From NCBI GenBank assembly GCA_012514745.1, contig JAAYZR010000002.1, positions 104,962 through 168,961 on the forward strand: a DNA stretch of 64,000 nt, in the 5' to 3' direction. The notes below the pieces were generated by a model, which was not told where the DNA came from, made no database searches, and was given only the letters and a program-made list of their open reading frames with translations. The translations under genes were made by a program, and so were the position numbers. Each line of letters starts with the position of its first letter. The stretch's first letter is position 1. Source of the stretch: Candidatus Undivivens industriae. Lineage in GTDB: Bacteria > Omnitrophota > Gorgyraeia > Gygaellales > Profunditerraquicolaceae. Below are positions 48,252 through 64,000 of the stretch, piece after piece.

Positions 48252-49430
48252 GTGTCTGTTAAAAACGGCGGAAGCCGGGGATTATCGAAAAAAGTTGAAG
48301 AAATGCAGCCTTCCGGGATCAGGGTCTTTTTCGACCTTGTGCTGGGAATGAAAGACGTTATTTCCCTCGGTGTGGGCGAACCGGATTTCGTCACGCCCTG
48401 GCAGATAAGGGAAGCCGGGATATACTCTCTGGAAAACGGTTCCACTTCCTATACCTCGAATAAAGGGCTGGTTAAACTGCGCATGGGGCTGCAGCATTAT
48501 TTGAAAAAGAGATACGGTTTGTCCTATGCGCATGAAGACCGGATACTCGTCACGGTAGGCGTGAGCCAGGGCGTGGACCTGGCTTTGCGCGCGCTGATCA
48601 ATCCCGGCGACAGGATTATCATCCCGGCGCCGGCATACGTCTGTTACGCCCCTCTTGCCGAACTGGCGGGGGGGAAGGCGGTTTGTATCGATACCTCGCG
48701 CGACGGTTTCAAGCTCACCCCCCGCGCGCTGGAATCCGCTCTGCGCGTCCCGGCCAAGGCGTTACTGTTGAATTACCCCTGTAATCCCACCGGGATTTCC
48801 TATACTGCGCGGGAGCTCAGGGAATTGAACCGGATACTGCTCAAACACGGAGTTATGTGCGTCAGCGACGAAATATACGCGGACCTCACTTACGATTTCG
48901 AACATACTTCATTCGCGTCCCTGCCGGGGGCCAAAGAGAACACGCTTTTGTTGAACGGGTTCTCCAAAAGTTACGCCATGACCGGCTGGCGCGTGGGATA
49001 CGCCTGCGGGCCTGCAAAGATTATCGCGGCAATGACAAAGATACATCAATATATGATGCTTTGCGCTCCGATCATGTCGCAGATGGCGGCCTGCGAGGCT
49101 TTGCTGACCGGACGCGACTCGATGGAGGAAATGAAGCGGGAATACCGCCGCAGGCGTTCTTTCATCGTGGACGGGTTGAACCGTATCGGCCTCGATTGCG
49201 CCCTGCCGCAGGGGGCTTTTTATGCCTTTGCTTCGGTGAAGAAGAGCGGATTGTCATCCATAGAATTCTGCCGGCGGCTGCTCAAAGAAGAGAAGGTCGC
49301 CGTCGTTCCGGGCACCGCTTTCGGGGATAACGGCGAGGGATACGTTCGTATCTCTTACGCCGCGGCGATGGACAAGATAAAAGAAGCGCTGGGCAGGATG
49401 CAGAGGTTCCTTGAAAGAAACAGGAAATGA
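48252..49430 (+). CDS. PLP-dependent aminotransferase, class I (aspartate aminotransferase-like)
   Basis: GTG start with AAGGAG RBS. SKSYAMTGWRVGY PLP-lysine motif. Confidence 0.8.
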   Translation: MSVKNGGSRGLSKKVEEMQPSGIRVFFDLVLGMKDVISLGVGEPDFVTPWQIREAGIYSLENGSTSYTSNKGLVKLRMGLQHYLKKRYGLSYAHEDRILVTVGVSQGVDLALRALINPGDRIIIPAPAYVCYAPLAELAGGKAVCIDTSRDGFKLTPRALESALRVPAKALLLNYPCNPTGISYTARELRELNRILLKHGVMCVSDEIYADLTYDFEHTSFASLPGAKENTLLLNGFSKSYAMTGWRVGYACGPAKIIAAMTKIHQYMMLCAPIMSQMAACEALLTGRDSMEEMKREYRRRRSFIVDGLNRIGLDCALPQGAFYAFASVKKSGLSSIEFCRRLLKEEKVAVVPGTAFGDNGEGYVRISYAAAMDKIKEALGRMQRFLERNRK

Positions 49431-49452
49431 AGCGGACGGGTGGAGCGCGGTT

Positions 49453-50784
49453 ATGGCGAAGATGACCGGAAAAGAAATAATGAAGCTGGTAAAGGATAAA
49501 AACATCGGTTTTATCCGGCTCTGTTTTACCGACGTCCTGGGGTTCCTCAAGGGTTTTGCCATAACGGCGGACGAACTGGAGCGCGTGCTGGAAGAAGGCA
49601 TGGGGTTTGACGGCTCCTCGGTGGAAGGGTTCGCCAGGGTGGAAGAGTCGGATATGGTCGCAAGGCCCGACCCGGACACGTTCTCCGTTACCCCCTGGAG
49701 CGCCCAGGATAGACACCTTACCGCCGGTATGTTCTGTGATATATACGAGCCCGGCGGCAGGCCGTTTGAAGGAGACCCGCGTTACATCCTCAAACGTAAC
49801 CTGGCTGCGGCGAAAGAGATGGGCTATACCTATTACGTCGGACCGGAGCTCGAGTATTTTTATTTCAGCAATTCCTCCGTCCCGCAGCCGCTCGATAACG
49901 GCGGTTATTTCGACCTTGTTCCTTTGGACGTCGCCCAGGACCTGCGCAGGGATACCATCTCGGCGCTGCAATCTATGGGCATCGCCGTCGAATACAGCCA
50001 TCATGAAGTGGCGCCCAGCCAGCACGAGATCGACCTGCGTTACGGGGATGCGTTGCGTATGGCAGATAACGTAATGACTTACCGTCTGGTGGTGAAAGAG
50101 ATCGCGCGCAAGCATGGCGTATACGCAACTTTTATGCCCAAGCCGATCTACGGGATCAACGGCTCCGGCATGCACGTCCACCAGTCGCTGTTTAAGGGCG
50201 GCAAGAACGCCTTTTTTGATCCGTCCGACAAATACCATCTTTCGCCCGCCGGCAAAGCGTATACCGCCGGGTTGCTAAAGCATTCCAGGGAGATCACTTC
50301 CATAACCAGCCAGTGGGTCAATTCATACAAAAGGTTGATTCCGGGATATGAGGCACCCGTGTATATATGCTGGGCGCAGATGAACCGCTCCGCGCTTATA
50401 CGCGTGCCTATGTATAAACCCGGGAAAGAGAAATCCACGCGCATAGAATACCGTTCGCCGGATCCGGCCTGCAATCCATACCTGGCTTTCTCGGTTATGC
50501 TCGCCTGCGGCCTTGAAGGAATGAAACGCGGATATAAATTGGCTCCGCCGGCAAACGACAATATTTACCGTATGGATGAGGAGGAAAGGAACAAACAGGG
50601 TATAAGTTCTCTTCCCGACGACCTGCTGGAGGCCATACAGGTCACCGAGAAGAGCAAAATAGTCAAGGAAGCCTTGGGGGCCACTCTCTTCGAGTTCTTC
50701 ATCCGCAACAAGAAAATGGAGTGGGATGAATATAAGGCTCAAGTCACCCGGTATGAGATAAACAAGTATCTGCCGATACTTTAA
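49453..50784 (+). CDS. glnA: glutamine synthetase type I
   Basis: GS-I length of 443 aa; catalytic-region motifs including FGQHLH-like and NPYL. Confidence 0.85.
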   Translation: MAKMTGKEIMKLVKDKNIGFIRLCFTDVLGFLKGFAITADELERVLEEGMGFDGSSVEGFARVEESDMVARPDPDTFSVTPWSAQDRHLTAGMFCDIYEPGGRPFEGDPRYILKRNLAAAKEMGYTYYVGPELEYFYFSNSSVPQPLDNGGYFDLVPLDVAQDLRRDTISALQSMGIAVEYSHHEVAPSQHEIDLRYGDALRMADNVMTYRLVVKEIARKHGVYATFMPKPIYGINGSGMHVHQSLFKGGKNAFFDPSDKYHLSPAGKAYTAGLLKHSREITSITSQWVNSYKRLIPGYEAPVYICWAQMNRSALIRVPMYKPGKEKSTRIEYRSPDPACNPYLAFSVMLACGLEGMKRGYKLAPPANDNIYRMDEEERNKQGISSLPDDLLEAIQVTEKSKIVKEALGATLFEFFIRNKKMEWDEYKAQVTRYEINKYLPIL

Positions 50785-53263: not shown

Positions 53264-53340
<77 letters not shown>

Positions 53341-53427: not shown

Positions 53428-53850
53428 ATGTTAGTTATCATTAGATTAACGCTTAACGTGATTTCCCTTGTCCTGGCGGCGCAGCTCTGCCCGGGCATAA
53501 GCATTACGAACTGGCAGGCCGCCCTTGCGGCCGCGCTGGTACTCGGTCTTTTCAACCTCTTTCTTAAGCCGGCGCTGGTTTTTCTTACCCTCCCGATTAA
53601 CCTGCTCAGTTTTGGAGTGTTCATTTTCTTTATAAACGGACTGCTTTTTTACGCCGCCTCGCGAGTGGTAACCGGTTTCCATGTGGACGGTTACGGCAGC
53701 GCCCTTCTGGGGGCTTTCTTTTACAGCGCGATAAACCTGCTGCTTGGGATTCTTTTCAACAGCAGGGGCGGGAATAACGGCGGAAGCCCGCGCAAAGGGC
53801 CCGGCCGCAGGAGCGACGTGATAGATGTGGAAGCTAAAATAGAATCTTGA
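53428..53850 (+). CDS. small 4-TM membrane protein (DUF360 / holin-IV-like)
   Basis: Four hydrophobic helices and a Gly/Arg-rich tail. Confidence 0.45.
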   Translation: MLVIIRLTLNVISLVLAAQLCPGISITNWQAALAAALVLGLFNLFLKPALVFLTLPINLLSFGVFIFFINGLLFYAASRVVTGFHVDGYGSALLGAFFYSAINLLLGILFNSRGGNNGGSPRKGPGRRSDVIDVEAKIES

Positions 53851-53875
53851 CAGAGAACGGCGAGAATGCTATAAT
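53847..53875 (+). promoter_or_regulatory. perfect consensus sigma70 promoter TTGACA-17-TATAAT upstream of the Gln-dependent nadE
   Basis: TTGACA at 53847-53852, TATAAT at 53870-53875. It is followed by two leader hairpins (53884-53899 and 53904-53940) ending in a T-run. Confidence 0.55.
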
Positions 53876-54029
53876 TTAAACACATTACGAAGGCGTAATA
53901 GACAAAGGCGTTTGCTGAATCACCGCAGATGCCTTTTTTGTTTTCCCGGATAACGTGGTCCTGAAAGCCGCAACACAGCTTTCAGGATTTTTTTTACCCG
54001 CTGAGAAGCGGTTTAAGGATGGGTTCATC

Positions 54030-55622
54030 GTGGAAAAGATCGCTTTGGCACAGATCAACTGCACGGTAGGGGGTGTGCGGGACAATGCGCAGAAGATCAT
54101 CGAATTCAGCCGGCTGGCGGCCGCCGAAGGCAATAAAATGGCCGTTTTCCCGGAGTTGGCCGTCACCGGTTATCCTCCGGAAGACTTGCTGCTAAAACCC
54201 TCTTTTATCGCCGACAACCTGGAGCAATCCAGGAGAATAGTCGCTTCCGCCGGCGATATGATTGTCATTTTCGGGTTCGTTGATACCGACGGAGAAAGGT
54301 TATATAACGCCGCCGCCGCGGCCGTCCGCGGTAAACTCGCCGGCGTGTACCGTAAAGTCCTGCTGCCTAACTACGGCGTGTTCGACGAAAAACGTTATTT
54401 CGCTCCGGGTAAAGAGGCCCCGGTTTTTAGGATCGACGGTCTATCTATGGGGATCAGTGTCTGCGAGGATATTTGGCACGCGTCCGGCCCGGTATACGAA
54501 CAGGCCAGGACCGGGGCGGAGGTCCTGGTCAATATCAGCGCTTCTCCCTATCAAATCGGCAAGATCGCAGAACGCGGGGATACCCTTTGCCGCTGCGCCG
54601 CGGAGTGCGGAGTGCCGATAGTTTATGTCAATCTTGTGGGAGGGCAGGATGATCTGGTGTTCGACGGAGGGAGCATGTTCATATCGTCTGCCGGCGGGGT
54701 GCTATCGCGCGCCGCTGTCTTCAAGGAAGAGCTCTTTACCCTGGAGCGGGCTGTCTGCCGCCGGCCGGAATATTCTTTGGAGCAGGAAGAAGAGGTTTAT
54801 TCCGCTCTGACTCTCGGTTTGAAAGATTATTTTCGCAAGAACGGTTTTAAAAAGGCGGTGCTGGGCCTTAGCGGCGGGATAGATTCGGCACTCACCGCTG
54901 CACTGGCCGCCGACGCGCTCGGCAGCGAAAACGTGACCGGCGTCTTCCTACCGGCCAGGTATACTTCCAAACAGTCGCATGACGACGCCCTAAAGCTTGC
55001 CCGCGGGCTGGGCATCGGGTTCAAGCGTATATCCATCGAGCCGATTTTTCGGCTTTACCTGTTGAGCCTGGAGGAACAGTTCAGCGGACTGCCGAGGGAT
55101 TGCACGGAAGAAAATCTGCAAGCGCGTATACGAGGCGCGCTGCTTATGGCTCTGTCCAATAAATTCGGGTGGCTGGTGCTCGCCACGGGAAACAAGTCGG
55201 AGATGAGTGTGGGGTATTCCACCATCTACGGTGATCTCGCCGGAGGGTTCGCGGTTTTAAAGGACGTGCCGAAGACTCTTATTTACAGGCTGGTCGCGTA
55301 CCGCAACCGCCGTTCCCCGGTCATACCGGAAAGCGTTATATCACGTGAACCCACTGCTGAACTTAGCCCGGGGCAGAAGGACAGCGATACCCTTCCGCCT
55401 TATGATGTGCTGGACCCCATATTGAAGCTGTATATTGAAGAAGATGCTTCGGCGCAGGATATCATCGCCGCCGGCTTCCAGGAAAAAGACGTGCGCAGGG
55501 TGGTTTCGCTGGTAGACGGCAGCGAATATAAGCGTCGGCAGTCCCCTCCCGGGATAAAGATCACATCCAGGGCGTTCGGTAAGGACCGCAGGATGCCGAT
55601 CACCAACGGACAAAAACCATGA
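54030..55622 (+). CDS. nadE: glutamine-dependent NAD+ synthetase (nitrilase domain plus NAD synthetase domain)
   Basis: N-terminal CN-hydrolase domain (KIALAQIN...) and a C-terminal PP-loop GLSGGIDSA. Start set at GTG 54030 with AAGGATGGG RBS. Confidence 0.75.
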   Translation: MEKIALAQINCTVGGVRDNAQKIIEFSRLAAAEGNKMAVFPELAVTGYPPEDLLLKPSFIADNLEQSRRIVASAGDMIVIFGFVDTDGERLYNAAAAAVRGKLAGVYRKVLLPNYGVFDEKRYFAPGKEAPVFRIDGLSMGISVCEDIWHASGPVYEQARTGAEVLVNISASPYQIGKIAERGDTLCRCAAECGVPIVYVNLVGGQDDLVFDGGSMFISSAGGVLSRAAVFKEELFTLERAVCRRPEYSLEQEEEVYSALTLGLKDYFRKNGFKKAVLGLSGGIDSALTAALAADALGSENVTGVFLPARYTSKQSHDDALKLARGLGIGFKRISIEPIFRLYLLSLEEQFSGLPRDCTEENLQARIRGALLMALSNKFGWLVLATGNKSEMSVGYSTIYGDLAGGFAVLKDVPKTLIYRLVAYRNRRSPVIPESVISREPTAELSPGQKDSDTLPPYDVLDPILKLYIEEDASAQDIIAAGFQEKDVRRVVSLVDGSEYKRRQSPPGIKITSRAFGKDRRMPITNGQKP

Positions 55623-56131
55623 GTTACCCCGACCTGCTTAAGAGGCTGTCCCCGCGGCTGAAGGGAATAACGTATAAACTTAACGGGAAATTCACCTTTT
55701 TCAACGAAGAAGATCTTTTCCAGGAGGCGGCGGTCAGGCTTTGGCAGGAATTCGAGCTCGGGCGGCTTGCCGGCAAGACAGACAGTTACATACTTCAGGG
55801 ATGTTATTTTCATCTCAAGAATTACATAAGAAAAAAATACGACAAAAAGAATACACTGAGCCTGGAGGCGTTGCTGACCGAAGAGCCCGGGGCCGAGGAC
55901 AGGCTGTCGTGCCTTTCTTCGCCTGAGCCGTTCGAATCGCTGCACGCCGGAGTCGTGGAGAAGGAGATGCGTTCTGCGTGCCGCGATAAAAGAGAACACG
56001 AAATATTCCATTTGAGCCTGCGGGGTTTCACGGTTAGGGAGATCGCGGCCGAACTCGGCGTCTCGCATGTGCTGGTGGTAAGACTGCGAAAAAGGATGAG
56101 GGCAAAACTTTTATCTCTGGCCGCGGAGTGA
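55619..56131 (+). CDS. sigma-70-family (ECF-like) RNA polymerase sigma factor
   Basis: Region-2-like segment EDLFQEAAVRLWQ and a region-4 HTH LRGFTVREIAAELGVSHVLVVRL. Confidence 0.6.
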   Translation: MSYPDLLKRLSPRLKGITYKLNGKFTFFNEEDLFQEAAVRLWQEFELGRLAGKTDSYILQGCYFHLKNYIRKKYDKKNTLSLEALLTEEPGAEDRLSCLSSPEPFESLHAGVVEKEMRSACRDKREHEIFHLSLRGFTVREIAAELGVSHVLVVRLRKRMRAKLLSLAAE

Positions 56132-56270
56132 AGAGGTGTTACCAGAAACCGGATTTCTTTACTTGTAATAGTGAAGCTCTCCGGGTTCTAACCCGGTTTC
56201 ACCTTAGCTTATGCACAAGGATGTGCGTTAAATAGAAACAACGGCCTGTTATAAAGGCTTGAGCTTAAAT

Positions 56271-56328
56271 AAGACAGAGGCGTCTTGCTTCCGGGATCCA
56301 ACGATCGGAGGCAAGACGTTTTTTATTG
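56271..56328 (+). terminator. leader attenuator in front of glnB-amt-glnK: small AGAGGC-loop hairpin overlapping a 13-bp-stem intrinsic terminator plus T6
   Basis: AAGAC-AGAGGC-GTCTT at 56271-56286. The terminator is CGTCTTGCTTCCG..CGGAGGCAAGACG followed by TTTTTT, spanning 56281-56324. Confidence 0.55.
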
Positions 56329-56358
56329 TATCCGCGCGGTCTATCCGGGAGGTGCGGG

Positions 56359-56697
56359 ATGAAAAAAATAGAAGCGGTGATAAGATCGGAAAAAGTCGGA
56401 GACGTGCGCAAGGCGCTGGACAAGACGTGCTTCTCCGGATTGATGCTTACCCAGGTGGACGGGCACGGTAAGCAGAAGGGTACGATGCAGGAATGGCGCG
56501 GAGACATTTATCGTGTGGGGATACTCCCCAAGACCAAGGTGGAGGTCGTGGTGGAAGATAAGGATCTTGATACCGTTGTCCGCGTAATCATGGACGCCGC
56601 CAGGACGGGAGAAATCGGAGACGGTAAGATATTCGTTTATCCTGTCGAAGAGGTTTACCGCATCAGGACGGCGGAAAAGGGAAGCGCGGCATTGTAA
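56359..56697 (+). CDS. glnB: nitrogen regulatory protein P-II
   Basis: 112 aa (MKKIEAVIR..., T-loop region, GDGKIFV). GGGAGG RBS. Confidence 0.85.
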   Translation: MKKIEAVIRSEKVGDVRKALDKTCFSGLMLTQVDGHGKQKGTMQEWRGDIYRVGILPKTKVEVVVEDKDLDTVVRVIMDAARTGEIGDGKIFVYPVEEVYRIRTAEKGSAAL

Positions 56698-56814
56698 TCC
56701 ATTTAATCAAACCGCCCCCTCGCCCAGAAATCCCCGGGCGCTTGTCCAAGGCATTGCGACGAGAGGATTGTCCAACGGGCAGACCGGGGAGTTTCACTAT
56801 TGAAAGGAGACGAG

Positions 56815-58041
56815 ATGAATTCCGGTGATACGGCATGGGTTTTGATTTCTTCGGCTCTTGTAATGTTGATGACGCCCGGCCTGGCCTTCTTTTACGGGGG
56901 TATGGTTAGGAAGAAGAATGTCCTTAGCATCCTGATGCAGTGTTTTATAGTCCTTTGTCTTTTGAGCGTTCAATGGGTGCTTTACGGTTACAGTATTTCC
57001 TTCGCACCCGGGGACGGCTTCTGGGGCGGGTTCAAATGGGCGGGGCTTGCCGGCGTCGGGCTGGAGCCTTACGCGGATTATTCGGCCACTATCCCGCACC
57101 AGGCTTTTATGATTTTCCAGGCTATGTTTGCCATAATTACTCCCGCTTTGATACTGGGAGCGTTCGCGGAAAGGATGAAGTTTTCCGCATTTTTGGCTTT
57201 CATATTGCTCTGGGTGACTTTCGTATACGGGCCGGTCTGCCATTGGGTATGGGGAATGGGCGGCTGGTTGAGAAAACTCGGAGCCCTTGATTTTGCAGGG
57301 GGCACAGTTGTGCATATCAACGCCGGTATCGCGGCTTTAGCAACGGCTATTGCTATCGGCAGGCGTAAGAATTTGGAGAAGAACGTTCCGACCCCGCATA
57401 ATATGCCGTTTGTAGTGTTGGGTACCGCTTTATTATGGTTCGGCTGGTTCGGGTTCAACGCCGGCAGCGCCCTGGCGGCCAACGGCCTCGCGGTAAACGC
57501 GTTCGTGGTCACCAACACCGCTGCCGCTGCCGCGGGTTTGAGCTGGGCATTTATAGAATGGATTAAGAACGGTAAACCTACCGTTCTCGGCGTGGCCAGC
57601 GGAGCGGTGGCGGGACTGGTCGCTATCACCCCGGCGGCGGGTTTCGTAAGCGTGATCCCTGCCATCTTCATCGGTCTGTTGGTAAGCCTGTTCTGTTTTG
57701 TTTTTGTGAGCGAGGTCAAAAGGAAGTTCGCTTATGACGATTCTCTCGATGCTTTCGGCGTGCATTGCGTGGGTGGAGTCTGGGGGGCCCTTGCGACCGG
57801 ATTGTTCGCTTCTAAAGCGGTCAATCCTGCCGGGGCGGACGGCCTGTTTTTCGGCAATCCGCAGCAATTCCTGGTGCAGATCGCGGCAGTCGCGGTAACG
57901 CTGGTCTATTCTTTCGCGGTCAGCATGGTTATCTACAAGATAGTAGATTCCGTGATGGGAGTACGCGTGGGAGAGAAAGAAGAATCCATTGGCCTTGATC
58001 TTACCCAGCACCACGAAAGAGCGTATACAATATTGGAATAA
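56815..58041 (+). CDS. amt: ammonium transporter
   Basis: Amt signature DTAWVLISSALVMLMTPGLAFFYGG. AAAGGAGA RBS 5 nt upstream of ATG 56815. Confidence 0.85.
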   Translation: MNSGDTAWVLISSALVMLMTPGLAFFYGGMVRKKNVLSILMQCFIVLCLLSVQWVLYGYSISFAPGDGFWGGFKWAGLAGVGLEPYADYSATIPHQAFMIFQAMFAIITPALILGAFAERMKFSAFLAFILLWVTFVYGPVCHWVWGMGGWLRKLGALDFAGGTVVHINAGIAALATAIAIGRRKNLEKNVPTPHNMPFVVLGTALLWFGWFGFNAGSALAANGLAVNAFVVTNTAAAAAGLSWAFIEWIKNGKPTVLGVASGAVAGLVAITPAAGFVSVIPAIFIGLLVSLFCFVFVSEVKRKFAYDDSLDAFGVHCVGGVWGALATGLFASKAVNPAGADGLFFGNPQQFLVQIAAVAVTLVYSFAVSMVIYKIVDSVMGVRVGEKEESIGLDLTQHHERAYTILE

Positions 58042-58068
58042 TTCCTTGTAAGGATAAGGGGGATATAA

Positions 58069-58410
58069 ATGAAACTGGTAATAGCCATAATCCAGCCGGA
58101 CAAGCTGGAGGAAATCAAAGAGGAGCTTTACAGGTCGGAGATCAATCTTATTACCGTCAGCGAAGTGCTCGGCCACGGCCGCCAGAAAGGCGTAACGGAG
58201 TTCTACCGCGGGGCAAAGGAGACCGGGAATCTGTTGAGAAAGATCCGTATTGAAATAGCCGTGAACGACACTTTCCTGGAACCGGCAATAAAAGCGATAG
58301 TGGCCGGGGCCAAGACCGGCGAGACCGGAGACGGTAAGATATTCGTGCTGGATATGAAGGAGTGCGTGCGTATACGCACGGAAGAACGCGGTTCCACGGC
58401 GATAGGGTAG
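58069..58410 (+). CDS. glnK: nitrogen regulatory protein P-II (GlnK-type, amt-linked)
   Basis: 113 aa; MKLVIAIIQP..., GDGKIFV. Confidence 0.85.
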   Translation: MKLVIAIIQPDKLEEIKEELYRSEINLITVSEVLGHGRQKGVTEFYRGAKETGNLLRKIRIEIAVNDTFLEPAIKAIVAGAKTGETGDGKIFVLDMKECVRIRTEERGSTAIG

Positions 58411-58558: not shown

Positions 58559-58587
58559 TTGACAGCGGGGGTGCTGGTATATATAAT
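58559..58587 (+). promoter_or_regulatory. perfect consensus sigma70 promoter TTGACA-17-TATAAT upstream of the glnN leader
   Basis: TTGACA at 58559-58564, TATAAT at 58582-58587. The glnN ATG lies about 275 nt downstream. Confidence 0.55.
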
Positions 58588-58715
58588 ATATAAAACAGCA
58601 GGCGATATCCGGTCCGGCGGCAGGAAGAATAATAAGAAAAAGCTGTTACCAAACCCGGGCAATCTTTACTTGTATAATTAAGGCACATCGTTGTGCCGTA
58701 AAATTAAGCGAAATA

Positions 58716-58772
58716 TGAACAGAGGCGTTCAGGATAATCGCCGCAGGCGGTTTGAATGGACGCCTCTTTTTA
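58716..58772 (+). terminator. leader attenuator in front of glnN: AGAGGC-loop hairpin overlapping a terminator (GAGGCGT..ACGCCTC plus TTTTTA)
   Basis: TGAAC-AGAGGC-GTTCA at 58716-58731. The terminator stem arms are at 58723-58729 and 58760-58766, followed by a T-run. Confidence 0.5.
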
Positions 58773-58867: not shown

Positions 58868-61063
58868 ATGAGTATAAGGCAGAAAGTTTTATTTAAGATC
58901 AATAACGTGCCTTTGGAGAAAGCCGGTTCTCTTGAGAAGGTATCTTCTTATTTCGGTGAAAACACTTTCAGCCTGGATGCGATGAAGAAGTATATCTCCG
59001 GAGCCACATTCGAAGCCTTCAAAACCTGGATGAACGAGGGGAAGACCATCAGCAAAGAGCAGGCGGACGAGATTGCCAACGCCATGAAAGATTGGGCCAT
59101 TTCCAAGGGCGCCACATATTATACGCATTGGTTCCAGCCTATGACCGGACTTACCGCGGAGAAGCACGACAGTTTTATTTCTTTTACCGGACCCGGGAAG
59201 GTGAGCGAGACATTCTCCGGAAGCAAACTCATACAGGGAGAGCCGGACGCTTCGAGTTTCCCTTCAGGAGGCATACGCGCCACCTTCGAGGCGCGCGGTT
59301 ACACCGCCTGGGACCCATCCAGCCCGGCCTTTATCATTGAGAGCGCTCTAGGCAAGACCCTTTGCATCCCGACCATATTTATATCTTATCACGGGGAAGC
59401 CCTGGACAAGAAACTCCCGCTTTTGCGCTCCGATGAAGCTTTAAGCAAAGCGGCGGTCGGACTGCTGAAACTGTTCGGGCACAAGGAAACGCAGAAAGTA
59501 CTTTCCACCTGCGGCCCGGAGCAGGAGTATTTTCTGATAGACAAGAATTATTATAATCTCCGGCAGGACCTTATAATGGCCGGCAGGACATTGATCGGGG
59601 CCCCGTCTCCGAAGGGCCAGCAGCTGGAGGATCAGTATTTCGGGACCATCAAGGAACGCGTGGTCAATTTTATGTTTGAGGTGGCGCAGGAGGCGTATAA
59701 ACTTGGGATACCGGTAGTGACGCGCCACAACGAGGTCGCTCCGCATCAATATGAATTCGCCCCCATCTTCGAAGAATCGAACCTCGCCGCCGACCACAAC
59801 CAGCTGCTTATGGAGCTGATGAAAAAGGTGGCGTTGCGGCACGATATGATCTGCCTTCTGCACGAGAAACCCTTTGCCGGGATAAACGGCAGCGGTAAGC
59901 ATCTCAACTGGTCGCTGGCTGACGACAAGGGAAACAACCTGCTTAATCCCGGTCAGACACCCGAGGATAATCTGCAGTTCCTGGCCGTGCTGGCCGCTGT
60001 GTTGAGGGCGGTTTATCTGCATTCCGACTTGCTGCGAGCGTCGGTAGCCATGGCCGGCAACGAGCACAGGCTGGGCGCCAATGAGGCGCCTCCGGCGATC
60101 ATCAGCGTCTTTCTGGGCGAGCAGTTGACCTCCATACTCGATATGATAGAGAAAGGCGTGAAATCAAAAGTCTCCAAAAGCGACATCATCGATCTGGGGA
60201 TCGGACGTTTGCCGAAATTCAACAAGGATAACACGGACAGGAACCGTACGTCGCCTTTTGCCTTTACCGGAGCCAAGTTTGAATTCCGCGCCGTGGGATC
60301 TTCGCAAAACATCTCCACGCCCATCGCGGTCATAAACACCATAATAGCCGAAAGCCTCGATTACGTGTCCGGAAAGATCTCCGCGGCGTCGGGCGGAGGC
60401 AAGGATTTCAATACCGCCGTTCTACAGGTGATCTCGGAGATAGTGAAAGAGACGAAGAGTATCCGTTTCGAGGGCAACAATTACGCCCCGGAGTGGGTCA
60501 AGGAGGCCAAGAAGCGCGGCCTTCCCAACGTGTCCAGCACTTATGAAGCGTTGGAGGCGTTGACTAAAGAGAAGAACATCCGCCTGTTCGAGAAATACGG
60601 CGTCTTCTCGGAAGAAGAACTGGTGGCGCGTTATCATATCTGGATCCATACGTATAATCTGACCCTTGAGATAGAGGCGAACACCCTTAAAGAAATGGTG
60701 AACGCCTCGGTGGTGCCGGCAGGTTATAAGTATGAGAAACTGCTCGCGCGCACGCTGCACGAGTTGGTAAGCCTTGTCAAGACGGCCGCTTTGAAACTTG
60801 ACCCGGCAGCCCTGAAGGACAAGAAAGCCCACCTTGCCGACATCGTCAGCAAAATATACTACGTCAGGCGCAATACCCTGGAGATGGATAAACTACTGGG
60901 GAAAGCGGCCAAAGTCGGCGATGCAGAGCGCGCCGAGCTTTATTTCAGGGAACTCAAACCATTGATGGAGCACATCCGCAGGCATGTGGATGAACTGGAG
61001 TGCGTGGTTTCAGACGACTCCTGGGACCTGCCTAAATACCGGGAGATGCTGTTCATAAAATAA
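58868..61063 (+). CDS. glnN: glutamine synthetase type III
   Basis: 730 aa, the typical GS-III length; conserved central catalytic region. AAGGAGG RBS. Confidence 0.85.
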   Translation: MSIRQKVLFKINNVPLEKAGSLEKVSSYFGENTFSLDAMKKYISGATFEAFKTWMNEGKTISKEQADEIANAMKDWAISKGATYYTHWFQPMTGLTAEKHDSFISFTGPGKVSETFSGSKLIQGEPDASSFPSGGIRATFEARGYTAWDPSSPAFIIESALGKTLCIPTIFISYHGEALDKKLPLLRSDEALSKAAVGLLKLFGHKETQKVLSTCGPEQEYFLIDKNYYNLRQDLIMAGRTLIGAPSPKGQQLEDQYFGTIKERVVNFMFEVAQEAYKLGIPVVTRHNEVAPHQYEFAPIFEESNLAADHNQLLMELMKKVALRHDMICLLHEKPFAGINGSGKHLNWSLADDKGNNLLNPGQTPEDNLQFLAVLAAVLRAVYLHSDLLRASVAMAGNEHRLGANEAPPAIISVFLGEQLTSILDMIEKGVKSKVSKSDIIDLGIGRLPKFNKDNTDRNRTSPFAFTGAKFEFRAVGSSQNISTPIAVINTIIAESLDYVSGKISAASGGGKDFNTAVLQVISEIVKETKSIRFEGNNYAPEWVKEAKKRGLPNVSSTYEALEALTKEKNIRLFEKYGVFSEEELVARYHIWIHTYNLTLEIEANTLKEMVNASVVPAGYKYEKLLARTLHELVSLVKTAALKLDPAALKDKKAHLADIVSKIYYVRRNTLEMDKLLGKAAKVGDAERAELYFRELKPLMEHIRRHVDELECVVSDDSWDLPKYREMLFIK

Positions 61064-61072
61064 CTTCCCTTT

Positions 61073-61108
61073 CAAGACCGCGCTCCGAGCCGTAAAGCGC
61101 GGAGCGCG
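61073..61108 (+). terminator. 12-bp perfect hairpin GACCGCGCTCCG..CGGAGCGCGGTC downstream of glnN
   Basis: Perfect inverted repeat with a 12-nt loop; no clear U-tract. Confidence 0.45.
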
Positions 61109-61184
61109 GTCTCTCCCGGAACCGGACTTGCTCCCCGGATTTTTAAAATACAAATGCCAAACTATTAGGCATTGCAAAACGCCG

Positions 61185-61571
61185 ATGGTCGAAATGATTG
61201 CATTATTTATCTCCGGTAATGAAGAGAACGTGCTTGCTGCGCTCTCCGACGCTTTGGGCCGGACCGGCAATACCGCCGTCAGCGTGGTCAAACGGGAGGT
61301 AATATCCGGAATCCTGCAAAAAGGCGATATGACCGCTCTGGTTTCCCTGGAAGAGAAAATAAGGAAATTATCCAGGCAGGTTTGCATGGAGAACAAGGGC
61401 AGGGCTTACAAGATCTTTCTCGATACGGTGGAGAAACCGTTGTTCGAAGAGGTGCTCATCCGCACCGACGGCAACCAGATGAAAGCGGCGAGGATATTGG
61501 GGATAAACAGGAACACGATGCGTTCAAGGATAAAGCGGCTCGGACTTACTCCCGGAGTCTATAGGCAATGA
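61185..61571 (+). CDS. small protein with a C-terminal Fis-type HTH (NtrC-C-terminal-like DNA-binding domain)
   Basis: C-terminus NQMKAARILGINRNTMRSRIKRLGL. The alternative TTG start is at 61128. Its stop overlaps the gltB ATG (ATGA). Confidence 0.45.
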   Translation: MVEMIALFISGNEENVLAALSDALGRTGNTAVSVVKREVISGILQKGDMTALVSLEEKIRKLSRQVCMENKGRAYKIFLDTVEKPLFEEVLIRTDGNQMKAARILGINRNTMRSRIKRLGLTPGVYRQ

Positions 61572-64000
61572 ATAAACTCCGGAGAGCTGAAAAATACGGA
61601 CTTTACGACAGCAGGTTCGAACATGATTCCTGCGGGGTGGGTTTTGTCTGCGATATAAAAGGCCGGCCGGACCATAAAATCATCAGCCGGGGGCTGGAGA
61701 TATTGCGCAGGCTCTCCCACCGCGGAGCCACCGGCGCCGACCCGCTTACCGGCGACGGAGCCGGCGTATTGATTCAGATCCCGGACGGTTTCTTCCGGGC
61801 GGCCTCCGGACTGGAGCTTCCGCCGTCCGGCGATTACGGCTGCGGGATGATCTTTTTCCCCCGTTCGGCGCAGTTGAGGGGAATATGCAGGAAGATCGTG
61901 CGCGAGGAGGCCGTTACTTGCGGCCTGCGCCTGTTGGGCTGGCGCAAGGTCCCTGTGGACCGGGGCTCTATAGGTACCACGGCGTTGAAGACCATGCCGG
62001 AGATCGAACAGGTATTTATAGGTGGCAAAGGAAAGTTTTCGCAAGGGCTTGCTCTTGAGCGCGCCTTGTATATACTGCGCAGAAAAATAGAGAACCGTGT
62101 GTCGGCGGCTATGCCCAAGAAAGACGGGGAGCTGTTTTACATAAACAGTATGTCCTGCAGGACGATCGCATATAAAGGGCTGTTAATGCCGAACCAGTTG
62201 GAGGCGTTTTTTCCCGATCTCACGGATGAGCGTATATCTTCCGCTCTCTGCCTTGTGCACTCGCGCTACAGCACCAATACTTTCCCTTCCTGGGAACTGG
62301 CCCAGCCGTTCAGGTTCCTGGCGCACAACGGCGAAATAAATACTTTGCGCGGCAACATAAACTGGATGACAGCCAGAGAGAGCCTGCTGAAAAACGATTG
62401 CCTCGGCGCCGACCTTAAGAAAATACTGCCGATCATCGTTCCCGGAGGCAGCGATTCAGCTTCGCTGGACAATCTTGTCGAGCTGTTGACGCTCTCTGGG
62501 CGCAGTCTTGAGCACGCCATGACTATGCTTATTCCTCCGGCCTGGGAAGGAGACGCGGCGATGGGCGCTGCCGTCAAGAGTTTCTATAAATTTCATGCCT
62601 GCCTGATGGAACCCTGGGACGGGCCGGCGGCGGCGGCGTTTACCGACGGTTCAAGCATAGGCGCCGTGCTCGACAGGAACGGCCTGCGTCCCGCGCGTTA
62701 TATTATCACGAAAGAAGGGACGGCCATGATGGCCTCGGAAACCGGGGTTCTCGACATTGCCCCGGGTGAGATAATGCGCTCCGGGAGGATAGAACCGGGG
62801 AAGATATTTCTGGTGGATACGGCGAACGGCCGCATTGTGGCGGACCAGGAGATCAAGGAAAAACTGGCGAGAGGCCGGCCTTATTCCGCCTGGCTGAAAG
62901 ATAACCTGCGGGAATTGGAAGAGTTTCCGGCGAAGAGGCCGGCCGGCTCCGATCTTTCAGGAAGAGCATTGTTTCCCGCGCTGAAGGCGTTTGGTTACAG
63001 CAGGGAGGATATGAAGGTGATCCTGGAGCCTATGGCGGTGAACGCCGCCGAACCGGTAGGTTCGATGGGCAACGATACGCCGCACGCCGTTCTTTCCGGT
63101 AGGCCGCAGTTGCTTTTTAATTATTTCAAGCAGCTTTTCGCCCAGGTGACCAATCCGGCCATCGACCCGATAAGAGAAGAATTGGTGATGAGCCTTTGGA
63201 GTTACCTCGGGCCGGGCGGTAACCTGCTCGAGGAGACTCCCGGCCAGTGCCGGAAAATCCTGGTAAAACACCCCGTGCTGACCATGGAAGAATTCGCTCG
63301 TCTGCGCGGCATAAAGACAAAGGGATTCAAAACCAGAGTAATCAGTATGCTGTTTTCCCCCGTGGGCAGGGGAGGAGTGCGCCGGGAATTGAAGCGTATC
63401 TGCCGGGAGGCGGATAAGGCGATCAGGGACCAATATACTTTTCTGCTTTTAAGCGATAGGGGGATGGACGCGGAGCACGCCGCGCTTCCCTCTTTACTTG
63501 CCGTGGGGGCTTTGCATCATCACCTGGTCCGAAAAGCCGGGAGGAGCCGTATAAGCATCATAGTCGAGAGCGGGGAACCCAGAGAAGTGCATCATTTTGC
63601 CCTGCTTTTCGGCTATGGAGCGGATTGCGTGGCGCCATATCTGGCATATGAGGCGGTGAAACATATCGCCCGGATCCAGAAAGAGAGCGGCGTTGATGAA
63701 GCCCAAGCTGTATATAACTACCGTAAAGCGGTGGAGAAAGGGATATTAAAGATACTTTCCAAAATGGGTATCTCGACTCTCCAGAGCTACAGAGGGGCTC
63801 AGATATTCGAAGCTCTGGGGATCGGGAAGGAAGCCATAGACCTTTGTTTCCCCGGCACGGTATCGCGCATAGGCGGCATATCCCTGGAGGTGATAACCAA
63901 GGAAGTCCTACGCAGGCACTCCGGAGCTTTTTGCGGCGATAAGGCCGCCGTATTGGATACCGGCGGCAATTATCAATGGAAAAAGGACGGGGAATTCCAT
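61568..64000 (+). CDS. gltB: glutamate synthase large subunit, N-terminal part (3' end beyond the window)
   Basis: Manual translation from ATG 61568 gives MNKLRRAEKYGLYDSRFEHDSCGVGFVCDIKG... (Ntn amidotransferase Cys). The frame stays open to position 64000. It is absent from the ORF track because no stop codon lies inside the window. Confidence 0.85.
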   Translation, partial: MNKLRRAEKYGLYDSRFEHDSCGVGFVCDIKGRPDHKIISRGLEILRRLSHRGATGADPLTGDGAGVLIQIPDGFFRAASGLELPPSGDYGCGMIFFPRSAQLRGICRKIVREEAVTCGLRLLGWRKVPVDRGSIGTTALKTMPEIEQVFIGGKGKFSQGLALERALYILRRKIENRVSAAMPKKDGELFYINSMSCRTIAYKGLLMPNQLEAFFPDLTDERISSALCLVHSRYSTNTFPSWELAQPFRFLAHNGEINTLRGNINWMTARESLLKNDCLGADLKKILPIIVPGGSDSASLDNLVELLTLSGRSLEHAMTMLIPPAWEGDAAMGAAVKSFYKFHACLMEPWDGPAAAAFTDGSSIGAVLDRNGLRPARYIITKEGTAMMASETGVLDIAPGEIMRSGRIEPGKIFLVDTANGRIVADQEIKEKLARGRPYSAWLKDNLRELEEFPAKRPAGSDLSGRALFPALKAFGYSREDMKVILEPMAVNAAEPVGSMGNDTPHAVLSGRPQLLFNYFKQLFAQVTNPAIDPIREELVMSLWSYLGPGGNLLEETPGQCRKILVKHPVLTMEEFARLRGIKTKGFKTRVISMLFSPVGRGGVRRELKRICREADKAIRDQYTFLLLSDRGMDAEHAALPSLLAVGALHHHLVRKAGRSRISIIVESGEPREVHHFALLFGYGADCVAPYLAYEAVKHIARIQKESGVDEAQAVYNYRKAVEKGILKILSKMGISTLQSYRGAQIFEALGIGKEAIDLCFPGTVSRIGGISLEVITKEVLRRHSGAFCGDKAAVLDTGGNYQWKKDGEFH

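Follow-up and report, generated by a model that had tools for sequence, protein, structure and literature searches.

A putative ANTAR-type transcription attenuator in the glnB-amt-glnK leader of Candidatus Undivivens industriae and its counterparts in Omnitrophota

In a 64,000-nt stretch of the Candidatus Undivivens industriae genome (Omnitrophota; GenBank assembly GCA_012514745.1, contig JAAYZR010000002.1, positions 104,962 to 168,961), hereafter called the window, a 227-nt intergenic gap (56132-56358; all positions are those of the window) separates the gene of a small sigma factor from an operon encoding a PII protein, an ammonium transporter and a second PII protein (glnB-amt-glnK). The question raised by this locus is whether the strong terminator in the gap simply ends the upstream transcription unit or controls entry into the nitrogen operon. 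With good confidence, the gap is interpreted, from sequence comparison, as containing a promoter and, behind it, a transcription attenuator of the ANTAR type that would be overridden by antitermination.

Architecture of the glnB leader

The published ANTAR target consists of two hexaloop hairpins, P1 and P2, whose loops begin with A and have G as the fourth base (A1/G4), joined by a short linker, with P2 overlapping a terminator (PMC3369931); a criterion for this linker has also been given (PMC8164766). In the glnB leader, the small hairpin AAGAC-AGAGGC-GTCTT with its A1/G4 hexaloop was read where the first-pass annotation had placed it (P2; Table 1), and it is unchanged in five orthologous leaders. 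The terminator was likewise recovered with a 13-bp stem (56281-56293/56306-56318) including one G-U pair and with T6 at 56319-56324. It belongs to the intrinsic class, in which a G+C-rich stem-loop runs straight into a U-tract, and it is conserved with a variable loop in the related loci L001-L004. It escaped a simple terminator scan, its loop being longer than 8 nt; ViennaRNA lengthens it into the T-run by weak A/G-U pairs and leaves the core as originally given. Bases 56281-56286 are common to P2 and the terminator, so that one or the other can form but never both, as had been proposed. When the intergenic region was folded, it was more stable than all of 200 shuffled sequences (z = -5.25). 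P2 is less stable than the terminator by 20-25 kcal/mol, so that read-through would need a factor.

The first-pass annotation had further described a palindrome, GCACA-N4-TGTGC. It is present at 56213-56226 as GCACA-AGGA-TGTGC, and within the window the pattern is restricted to the glnB and glnN leaders, but across the family the element is a 4-bp stem with a hexaloop (P1) rather than a 5-bp stem with a tetraloop; the window lineage can close one extra A-U pair and thereby arrives at the tetraloop. Between P1 and P2 lies a third hexaloop hairpin, P2a, which competes with a hairpin GGCCU...AGGCU (56243-56259; -6.5 kcal/mol) that has no U-tract. The middle hairpins differ in the orthologous leaders of L003 and L004, that of L004 still being followed by T6. 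P2a probably represents what is left of a first attenuator after the loss of its terminator or U-tract.

Under the proposed mechanism, transcription would start about 6 nt past a promoter-like box, GTTACCA-N13-TTTACTTGTA, at the predicted G56173, and the nascent RNA would fold P1 and later reach P2. By default the more stable terminator would capture the P2 bases, and transcription would stop before the PII gene. An active dimer of a GAF-ANTAR protein would bind the hexaloops of P1 (and/or P2a) and of P2 and keep the 3' arm of P2 from the terminator, so that polymerase could read into glnB-amt-glnK, likely when nitrogen is short. A gene for such a protein had been noted upstream, beside glnA, and Pfam matches to both a GAF and an ANTAR domain were obtained there. 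The same device would control glnN and the nadE-sigma operon.

The P1/P2/terminator design is present in three copies in the window, in the glnB, glnN and nadE leaders (Table 1). The linker between P1 and P2 measures 18 nt in the glnN leader, 0-1 nt in the nadE leader and 8-10 nt in distant orthologues. Both the glnB and the glnN leader contain two hexaloop stem-loops with A1/G4 in both loops, the 3' part of P2 lies within the terminator, and an ANTAR protein is encoded in the same genome. The window contains three P2 cores with a T-run behind them, where dinucleotide shuffles predict 0.29 and a count of three is attained in 2 of 300; because this pattern was derived from the same data, conservation across genomes is the stronger argument.

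Two further foldings were observed in the glnB leader. A hairpin CCGGGUU-CU-AACCCGG (56181-56196, + strand) lies just past the predicted start, is part of the minimum-energy fold and was found solely in the window, L001 and L002, being absent from L003 and L004; possible roles are weak termination of the nadE-sigma operon or stabilisation of the RNA 5' end. In the stretch from the terminator to the PII start codon (56332-56357), the minimum-energy fold pairs CCGCGC with GUGCGG, which partly masks the Shine-Dalgarno sequence GGGAGG (56347-56352) and could bring extra translational control.

Conservation and covariation in Omnitrophota

The comparison set consisted of 80 Omnitrophota loci, fetched via their GAF-ANTAR genes, and the window (81 sources, 1.14 Mb). 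A lack of conservation of the hairpins in related leaders had been named as a possible refutation; instead, the design recurs beside the GAF-ANTAR gene in many genomes of this set. Units of a P2 core and a T-run numbered 84 on the strand of the ANTAR gene against 8 on the opposite strand, and a T-run follows 84 of the 106 + strand P2 cores. An independent sample of 120 metagenome contigs was selected solely by an exact match to the box and yielded 138 box matches. A P2-like hairpin with a T-run was found within 200 nt after 104 of 132 boxes (79%) on these contigs, and after 46 of 53 boxes of the genome loci. The genes next to the metagenome boxes are amt, glnN, PII and porin genes, the gene of an HTH_8 protein and that of a secreted 267-aa protein.

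These counts bear on a first alternative, in which the T6 hairpin just ends the upstream nadE-sigma operon and the box and small hairpins are unrelated chance features. The terminator is indeed strong, an operon that ends convergently lies upstream of it, and a window-level scan for promoters and terminators yields many chance matches. However, the promoter-like box stands past the sigma stop codon and ahead of the terminator, the elements reappear in the same order at glnN, at nadE and in dozens of genomes, P2 and a T-run regularly follow the box in both samples, and P2 covaries. A plain operon end is consequently regarded as extremely improbable.

Covariation was evaluated in two sets of sequences. 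In a MAFFT alignment of 19 distant leaders, P1 and P2 were paired in 98.5% of cells, compared with 16-47% when the partner column was slid, and P1 contained pairs with compensatory change (AU 16, GC 3; and AU 9, GU 7, GC 2, UA 1). Among 74 distinct sequence-anchored P2 units, the third pair was GC in 33, AU in 27, GU in 13 and AC in 1 (Fisher p = 2e-9), the fourth pair was formed in 52 against 43 expected, and the outer pairs were at chance level. The P2 loop follows the consensus NNNGGC, with G4 in 72 of the 74 units. The frequency of G-U pairs and the near absence of A-C pairs point to the + strand RNA, rather than a DNA palindrome, as the conserved entity.

This distinction matters for a second alternative, namely that the GCACA-N4-TGTGC palindrome is a DNA operator (for example for the HTH_8 protein) acting on initiation, with the terminator overcome in some other way. 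Such an operator would stand at a usual position, 2-40 nt past the predicted start, and an HTH_8 regulator is encoded within the regulon. The P1 homologues nevertheless pair despite changed sequence (GCAC/GUGU, ACGC/GCGU, UCGC/GCGA, UUAC/GUAA, AGAC/GUCU), the occurrence of G-U without A-C does not fit a DNA half-site, and G4 of the loop is conserved; the operator is accordingly deemed very unlikely.

A third alternative is a protein-free metabolite riboswitch. Glutamine riboswitches sit on nitrogen genes of other phyla, and the excess of structure over the shuffled sequences would suit such an element as well. A search against Rfam 15 with the whole window (gathering thresholds) and with 56100-56400 (E up to 10) nevertheless returned only two tRNAs and chance matches. 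Moreover, the conserved parts are two hexaloop hairpins of 3-5 bp joined by linkers that vary in length and sequence, with no conserved pocket, and the motif stands beside an ANTAR gene across the loci (themselves fetched through that gene). Next to no credence is thus given to a riboswitch, and ANTAR-mediated antitermination is retained.

A covariance model (R1) was built from 19 short-linker leaders of distant genomes, without any window sequence. With default filters it was too specific, recovering 22 close relatives and none of the three window leaders; with filters off, the nadE, glnB and glnN leaders were the top three matches in the 64 kb, and in the glnB leader the model aligned 56210-56254 as a P1+P2 unit. 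Recurrence, covariation of P1 and P2, energetics and the nitrogen genes downstream all support the ANTAR reading that the first-pass annotation had put forward. Most likely, as judged from the sequences, a conserved nitrogen regulon of Omnitrophota is under the control of ANTAR attenuators.

The genes downstream of the attenuators are those of PII, amt, glnN, nadE, gdh, carA, a permease-PII fusion, porins and the small sigma factor. The fusion (L022, 4520-6370) is a 617-aa amino-acid permease with a C-terminal PII domain, according to Pfam. The commonest first target past the sigma gene is a secreted 267-aa protein with the motif ATPSTLIWAPSTDIQPYK (for instance L007, 11616-12416, and many metagenome loci), which matched no Pfam family. 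Further targets are beta-barrel porins of the BBP2 and Gcw_chp types, possibly outer-membrane uptake channels for nitrogen compounds. In other genomes a separate box and attenuator precede the HTH_8 gene (e.g. L006, 16577; L072, 9469). Its 147-aa product, whose sole domain is a C-terminal Fis-type HTH_8, is a third candidate regulator of the regulon.

Distant leaders often combine one P1 with two successive attenuators, P2a/terminator 1 and P2b/terminator 2, and such tandem attenuators are common (L006, 11488-11660; L019, 11447-11600; L043, 10760-10880; others). Some distant glnN leaders have no P1 (L020, 13309-13400; L023, 14126-14230; L028, 12729; L043, 16948; L072, 7083). There, AGAAC-AGAGGC-GUUCU comes immediately after the box, with a terminator whose 5' arm is the entire P2, and an extended -10 sigma-70 promoter (TGnTAnAAT) lies between this terminator and glnN. 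The box transcript in these leaders could be a very short RNA.

In the window, no attenuator was found before the aminotransferase-glnA-ANTAR operon, where the gap is 27 nt. A tRNA gene with anticodon CAU (53264-53337) lies between ftsB and the holin-like gene, just 5' of the nadE leader.

Table 1. Positions of leader elements and genes in the window (energies in kcal/mol).
Feature	Position	Strand	Remarks
glnB leader: two-part promoter-like box GTTACCA-N13-TTTACTTGTA	56138-56167	+	motif recurs in Omnitrophota loci
glnB leader: predicted transcription start	G56173	+	about 6 nt past box
glnB leader: P1, GCAC-AAGGAU-GUGC	56213-56226	+	hexaloop A1, G4; -7.3
glnB leader: P2a, AACA-ACGGCC-UGUU	56237-56250	+	third hexaloop hairpin, between P1 and P2; A1, G4
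glnB leader: P2, AAGAC-AGAGGC-GUCUU	56271-56286	+	candidate antiterminator hairpin; -4.8 alone
glnB leader: intrinsic terminator	56281-56324	+	-28.1; 5' arm is last P2 loop base plus P2 3' arm
glnN leader	58645-58771	+	box, P1, P2, terminator, in same order as glnB
glnN leader: box GTTACC-N14-TTTACTTGTA	58645-58674		predicted start A58680
glnN leader: P1, GGCAC-AUCGUU-GUGCC	58682-58697		loop A1, G4
glnN leader: P2, UGAAC-AGAGGC-GUUCA	58716-58731		loop A1, G4
glnN leader: terminator	58721-58771		T5 end; -29.5, against -4.0 for P2
nadE-sigma leader	53847-53939	+	third attenuator; found by P2-core search
nadE leader: sigma-70 promoter	53847-53875		perfect TTGACA-17-TATAAT
nadE leader: P1, AUUAC-GAAGGC-GUAAU	53884-53899		loop position 1 is G
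nadE leader: P2, AGAC-AAAGGC-GUUU	53900-53913		
nadE leader: terminator	53904-53939		T6; -15.9, against -1.3 for P2
Aminotransferase	48252-49430		Pfam
glnA	49411-50784		adjoins GAF-ANTAR gene; Pfam
GAF-ANTAR protein, 246 aa	50836-51576	+	candidate antiterminator; Pfam
Enolase, ftsB, tRNA, holin-like gene	between GAF-ANTAR gene and nadE		Pfam gene order
nadE, glutamine-dependent	53955-55622		overlaps gene of the 170-aa helix-turn-helix protein; Pfam
Small sigma-70-family factor, 170 aa	55619-56131	+	homology; candidate box reader
PII-amt-PII (glnB-amt-glnK), operon under putative control	56359-58410	+	Pfam
PII	56359-56697	+	Pfam
Amt	56800-58041	+	Pfam
Second PII	58069-58410	+	Pfam
glnN, type III glutamine synthetase	58868-61063	+	downstream of glnN leader; Pfam
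HTH_8 protein, 147 aa	61128-61571	+	putatively regulated, like glnN; Pfam
glnN and HTH_8 gene, putatively regulated stretch	58868-61571	+	

The promoter-like box and the small sigma factor

The box TCTTTACTTGTAATA, described by the first-pass annotation as the first element of the leader, is present at 56156-56170, yet it is not part of the RNA switch and instead forms the downstream half of an invariant, promoter-like two-part element on the DNA. The exact 12-mer TCTTTACTTGTA occurs twice in the 64 kb, both times inside nitrogen-gene leaders. With at most one mismatch, GTTACC-N14-TTTACTTGTA gave 55 matches in the 81 sources on the + strand, which is that of the ANTAR gene, and none on the - strand. 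The spacing is fixed, the spacer sequence is unconserved, and an A-rich tract lies immediately 5' of the box, whose geometry is of the -35/-10 type (GTTACC, 16-17 bp, then TACTTG or ACTTGT). Among the genome matches, 54 of 55 have a purine 35 nt from the box start, as do 125 of 138 metagenome matches, which makes G56173 (glnB) and A58680 (glnN) the likely starts, 2-40 nt ahead of P1. Interpretation of the box as a housekeeping extended -10 element (TG-TATAAT) was rejected as the primary reading because the bases past TTGTA are unconserved; it would also put the start within P1 or P2.

Two observations on promoter sequences elsewhere in the window may be added. A perfect TTGACA-17-TATAAT promoter (58559-58587) lies 58 nt before the glnN box, so that glnN may have tandem promoters, housekeeping and box, with one attenuator after both. 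A two-mismatch relative of the box half-site, TCTTTACTTGCC, was found at 63491-63502, adjoining a terminator-like hairpin (63472-63488).

The 170-aa protein encoded directly upstream of the glnB box is, on homology, a sigma-70-family sigma factor. Searched alone, it gave nothing significant in the PDB and only weak helix-turn-helix matches in Pfam. A profile built from 12 members of its family, by contrast, matched FliA over regions 2 and 4 (2.2e-7), SigH (3.9e-5) and region 2 of the extracytoplasmic function (ECF) factor SigE. NCBI assigns the sigma-70 family name to its 710 relatives in the database, which often have Sigma70_r2/r4 matches (PF04542, PF04545, PF08281). In most genomes the gene of the 170-aa protein lies directly 3' of the ANTAR gene and is preceded by a separate sigma-70 promoter and by a dual-hexaloop attenuator of the canonical kind. 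In one such leader, UUAC-AGAGAU-GUAA and, after a linker of 5 nt, AGAC-AUUGAG-GUCU precede a terminator, and a second unit, GGAC-UAAGGC-GUCC with another terminator, comes next. In the window lineage, nadE is inserted between the attenuator leader and the sigma gene.

The box was found 25-95 nt past the sigma stop codon in 26 of 26 sigma-bearing loci, compared with 2 of 38 loci without a sigma gene that have a box at all. This co-occurrence makes the sigma factor the best candidate for the box reader. Furthermore, among 117 boxes located independently of the sigma gene, 37 have that gene as their upstream neighbour. Given this association, reading of the box promoter by the small sigma factor is modestly favoured. 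Itself encoded behind an ANTAR attenuator, it would then read the box, and the targets would need both the sigma factor and the antiterminator.

Alternatively, housekeeping sigma-70 together with a nitrogen-responsive activator could read the box. TACTTG retains T-12 and A-11 of a -10 element, GTTACC shares three of six bases with TTGACA at a spacing of 16-17 bp, no sigma gene lies near the ANTAR gene in the 38 loci mentioned, and the precedent for dual control, NtrC with sigma-54 at nasF, uses an activator (PMC12591593). On the other hand, at least 16 positions of the box are near-invariant across the phylum, unlike in housekeeping promoters, of which the window holds canonical TTGACA-17-TATAAT examples, and both the contrast between loci with and without the sigma gene and the independently found boxes tie the box to that gene. 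Reading by sigma-70 and an activator is hence considered rather unlikely, and the small sigma factor is kept as the preferred candidate.

Weight of the evidence and relation to known systems

Several observations weigh against antitermination by an ANTAR protein or against parts of the scheme. The P1-P2 linker of the glnB leader measures 44 nt and thus lies outside the published 2-25 nt, a gap attributed to the decayed first attenuator unit (P2a) in between; the P1-P2a and P2a-P2 linkers, 10 and 20 nt, are within that range provided that P2a forms. The fit of this leader to the canonical motif accordingly depends on P2a, which is weak (-0.8 kcal/mol) compared with its -6.5 kcal/mol competitor. 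A1 is present in just 33 of the 74 P2 loops (A 45%, G 28%, U 23%), the invariant part being NNNGGC, and many second tandem units (AGAC-GCAGGC-GUCU, GGAC-UAAGGC-GUCC) have no P1 of their own and often no A1. In the alignment of sigma/nadE-type leaders, the stems are near-invariant and show almost no covariation within the class, so that it neither backs nor contradicts the fold. The window E-values of model R1 are marginal (nadE 0.11, glnB 0.24, glnN 0.48), and no Rfam family was matched, a result of low weight since the presence of an ANTAR-target model in Rfam is not established. The link between sigma factor and box consists of adjacency and co-occurrence. Finally, the support for ANTAR antitermination is comparative, and the organism is an uncultivated metagenome-assembled genome.

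The GAF-ANTAR protein matched the ANTAR family PF03861 at residues 188-239 (66.1 bits; cut-off 27.3) and GAF_2 with 76.4 bits. The ANTAR relatives in the PDB are Rv1626, NasR and EutV, and among solved structures the GAF domain is closest to those of PtsP/EI-Ntr (4.6e-14), Nlh1 and NifA. The protein is 98% identical to one from a Candidatus Omnitrophota metagenome-assembled genome (WOZK01000031) and about 70% identical to proteins of 80 further Omnitrophota species. Since EI-Ntr binds glutamine through its GAF domain (PMC4848567), a nitrogen-status ligand is a reasonable inference for the GAF-ANTAR protein; its signal is probably low glutamine and/or high 2-oxoglutarate, perceived through the GAF domain, and the protein would act by binding RNA. 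In the literature cited here, no target or ligand is described for any GAF-ANTAR protein (PMC3369931, PMC12591593).

ANTAR targets before genes of PII proteins, ammonium transporters and glutamine synthetase have already been predicted in other phyla (PMC3369931). As ANTAR antitermination of nitrogen genes is established, the leader itself is no surprise; in view of these predictions and of the two-layer precedents below, it joins the ANTAR targets, a class already known, as a new member. The eut leaders of Enterococcus faecalis, controlled by EutV/EutW, likewise have two A1/G4 hexaloop hairpins, the second overlapping a terminator (PMC3369931, PMC8934654), with the ANTAR protein encoded nearby and several leaders in one regulon. 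There, however, the sensor is a phosphorylated receiver and the targets serve ethanolamine use, whereas here a GAF one-component regulator and nitrogen assimilation are involved. The eut linkers are 5-12 nt long, compared with 44 nt (glnB) and 18 nt (glnN), and the P2 loop consensus differs from that of eut in its variable first base.

In Klebsiella oxytoca, NasR with the nasF leader provides a one-component ANTAR regulator of a nitrogen pathway (PMC12591593, PMC7496416) and the same succession of two layers, a specialised promoter (there sigma-54 with NtrC) followed by antitermination in the leader. NasR differs in its nitrate-sensing NIT domain, and the nasF promoter is of the sigma-54 type with an enhancer protein, while the box described here is of the -35/-10 type and possibly read by a small sigma-70-family factor. 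In Geobacter sulfurreducens, terminator-like signals are present in the glnK and amtB promoter regions (GnfL/GnfM and GnfK/GnfR; PMC2995071), and the ANTAR protein GnfR, tested on nifH, overcomes termination after a master system has switched the promoters on, which constitutes a cascade. GnfR, though, is a response regulator that has its cognate kinase, the promoters are RpoN-dependent, and the Geobacter glnB gene itself has no terminator, whereas here one precedes glnB. The predicted regulons of Desulfotomaculum acetoxidans and Pelobacter carbinolicus (PMC3369931) are similar in having many ANTAR targets per genome, in comprising PII, ammonium transporter and glutamine/glutamate synthesis genes, and in containing tandem units within one leader region; these organisms belong to other phyla, and neither a dedicated promoter motif nor a sigma factor was reported for the regulons. 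Not described in the literature cited are a GAF-sensor ANTAR protein with defined targets, the NNNGGC form of P2, single-hairpin second attenuators, and a conserved box with a linked small sigma factor.

The locus provides dozens of candidate RNAs as a first target set for GAF-ANTAR proteins, together with a coherent regulon, a class of candidate ligands, and a highly conserved promoter motif with a candidate cognate sigma factor in a phylum without genetics. The variable first loop base and invariant GGC of P2, the single-hairpin second attenuators and the tandem units bear on how ANTAR dimers recognise RNA. Tentatively, and as a possibility that falls somewhat short of being favoured, the parts may be joined into a two-key circuit, in which the GAF-ANTAR protein, sensing glutamine/2-oxoglutarate, would free the synthesis of the phylum-specific sigma factor, the sigma factor would read the box, and the same antiterminator would rescue the resulting transcripts. 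If true, this circuit would be a coherent feed-forward AND gate made from uncharacterised parts, and it may replace control of the NtrC/sigma-54 type in these bacteria.

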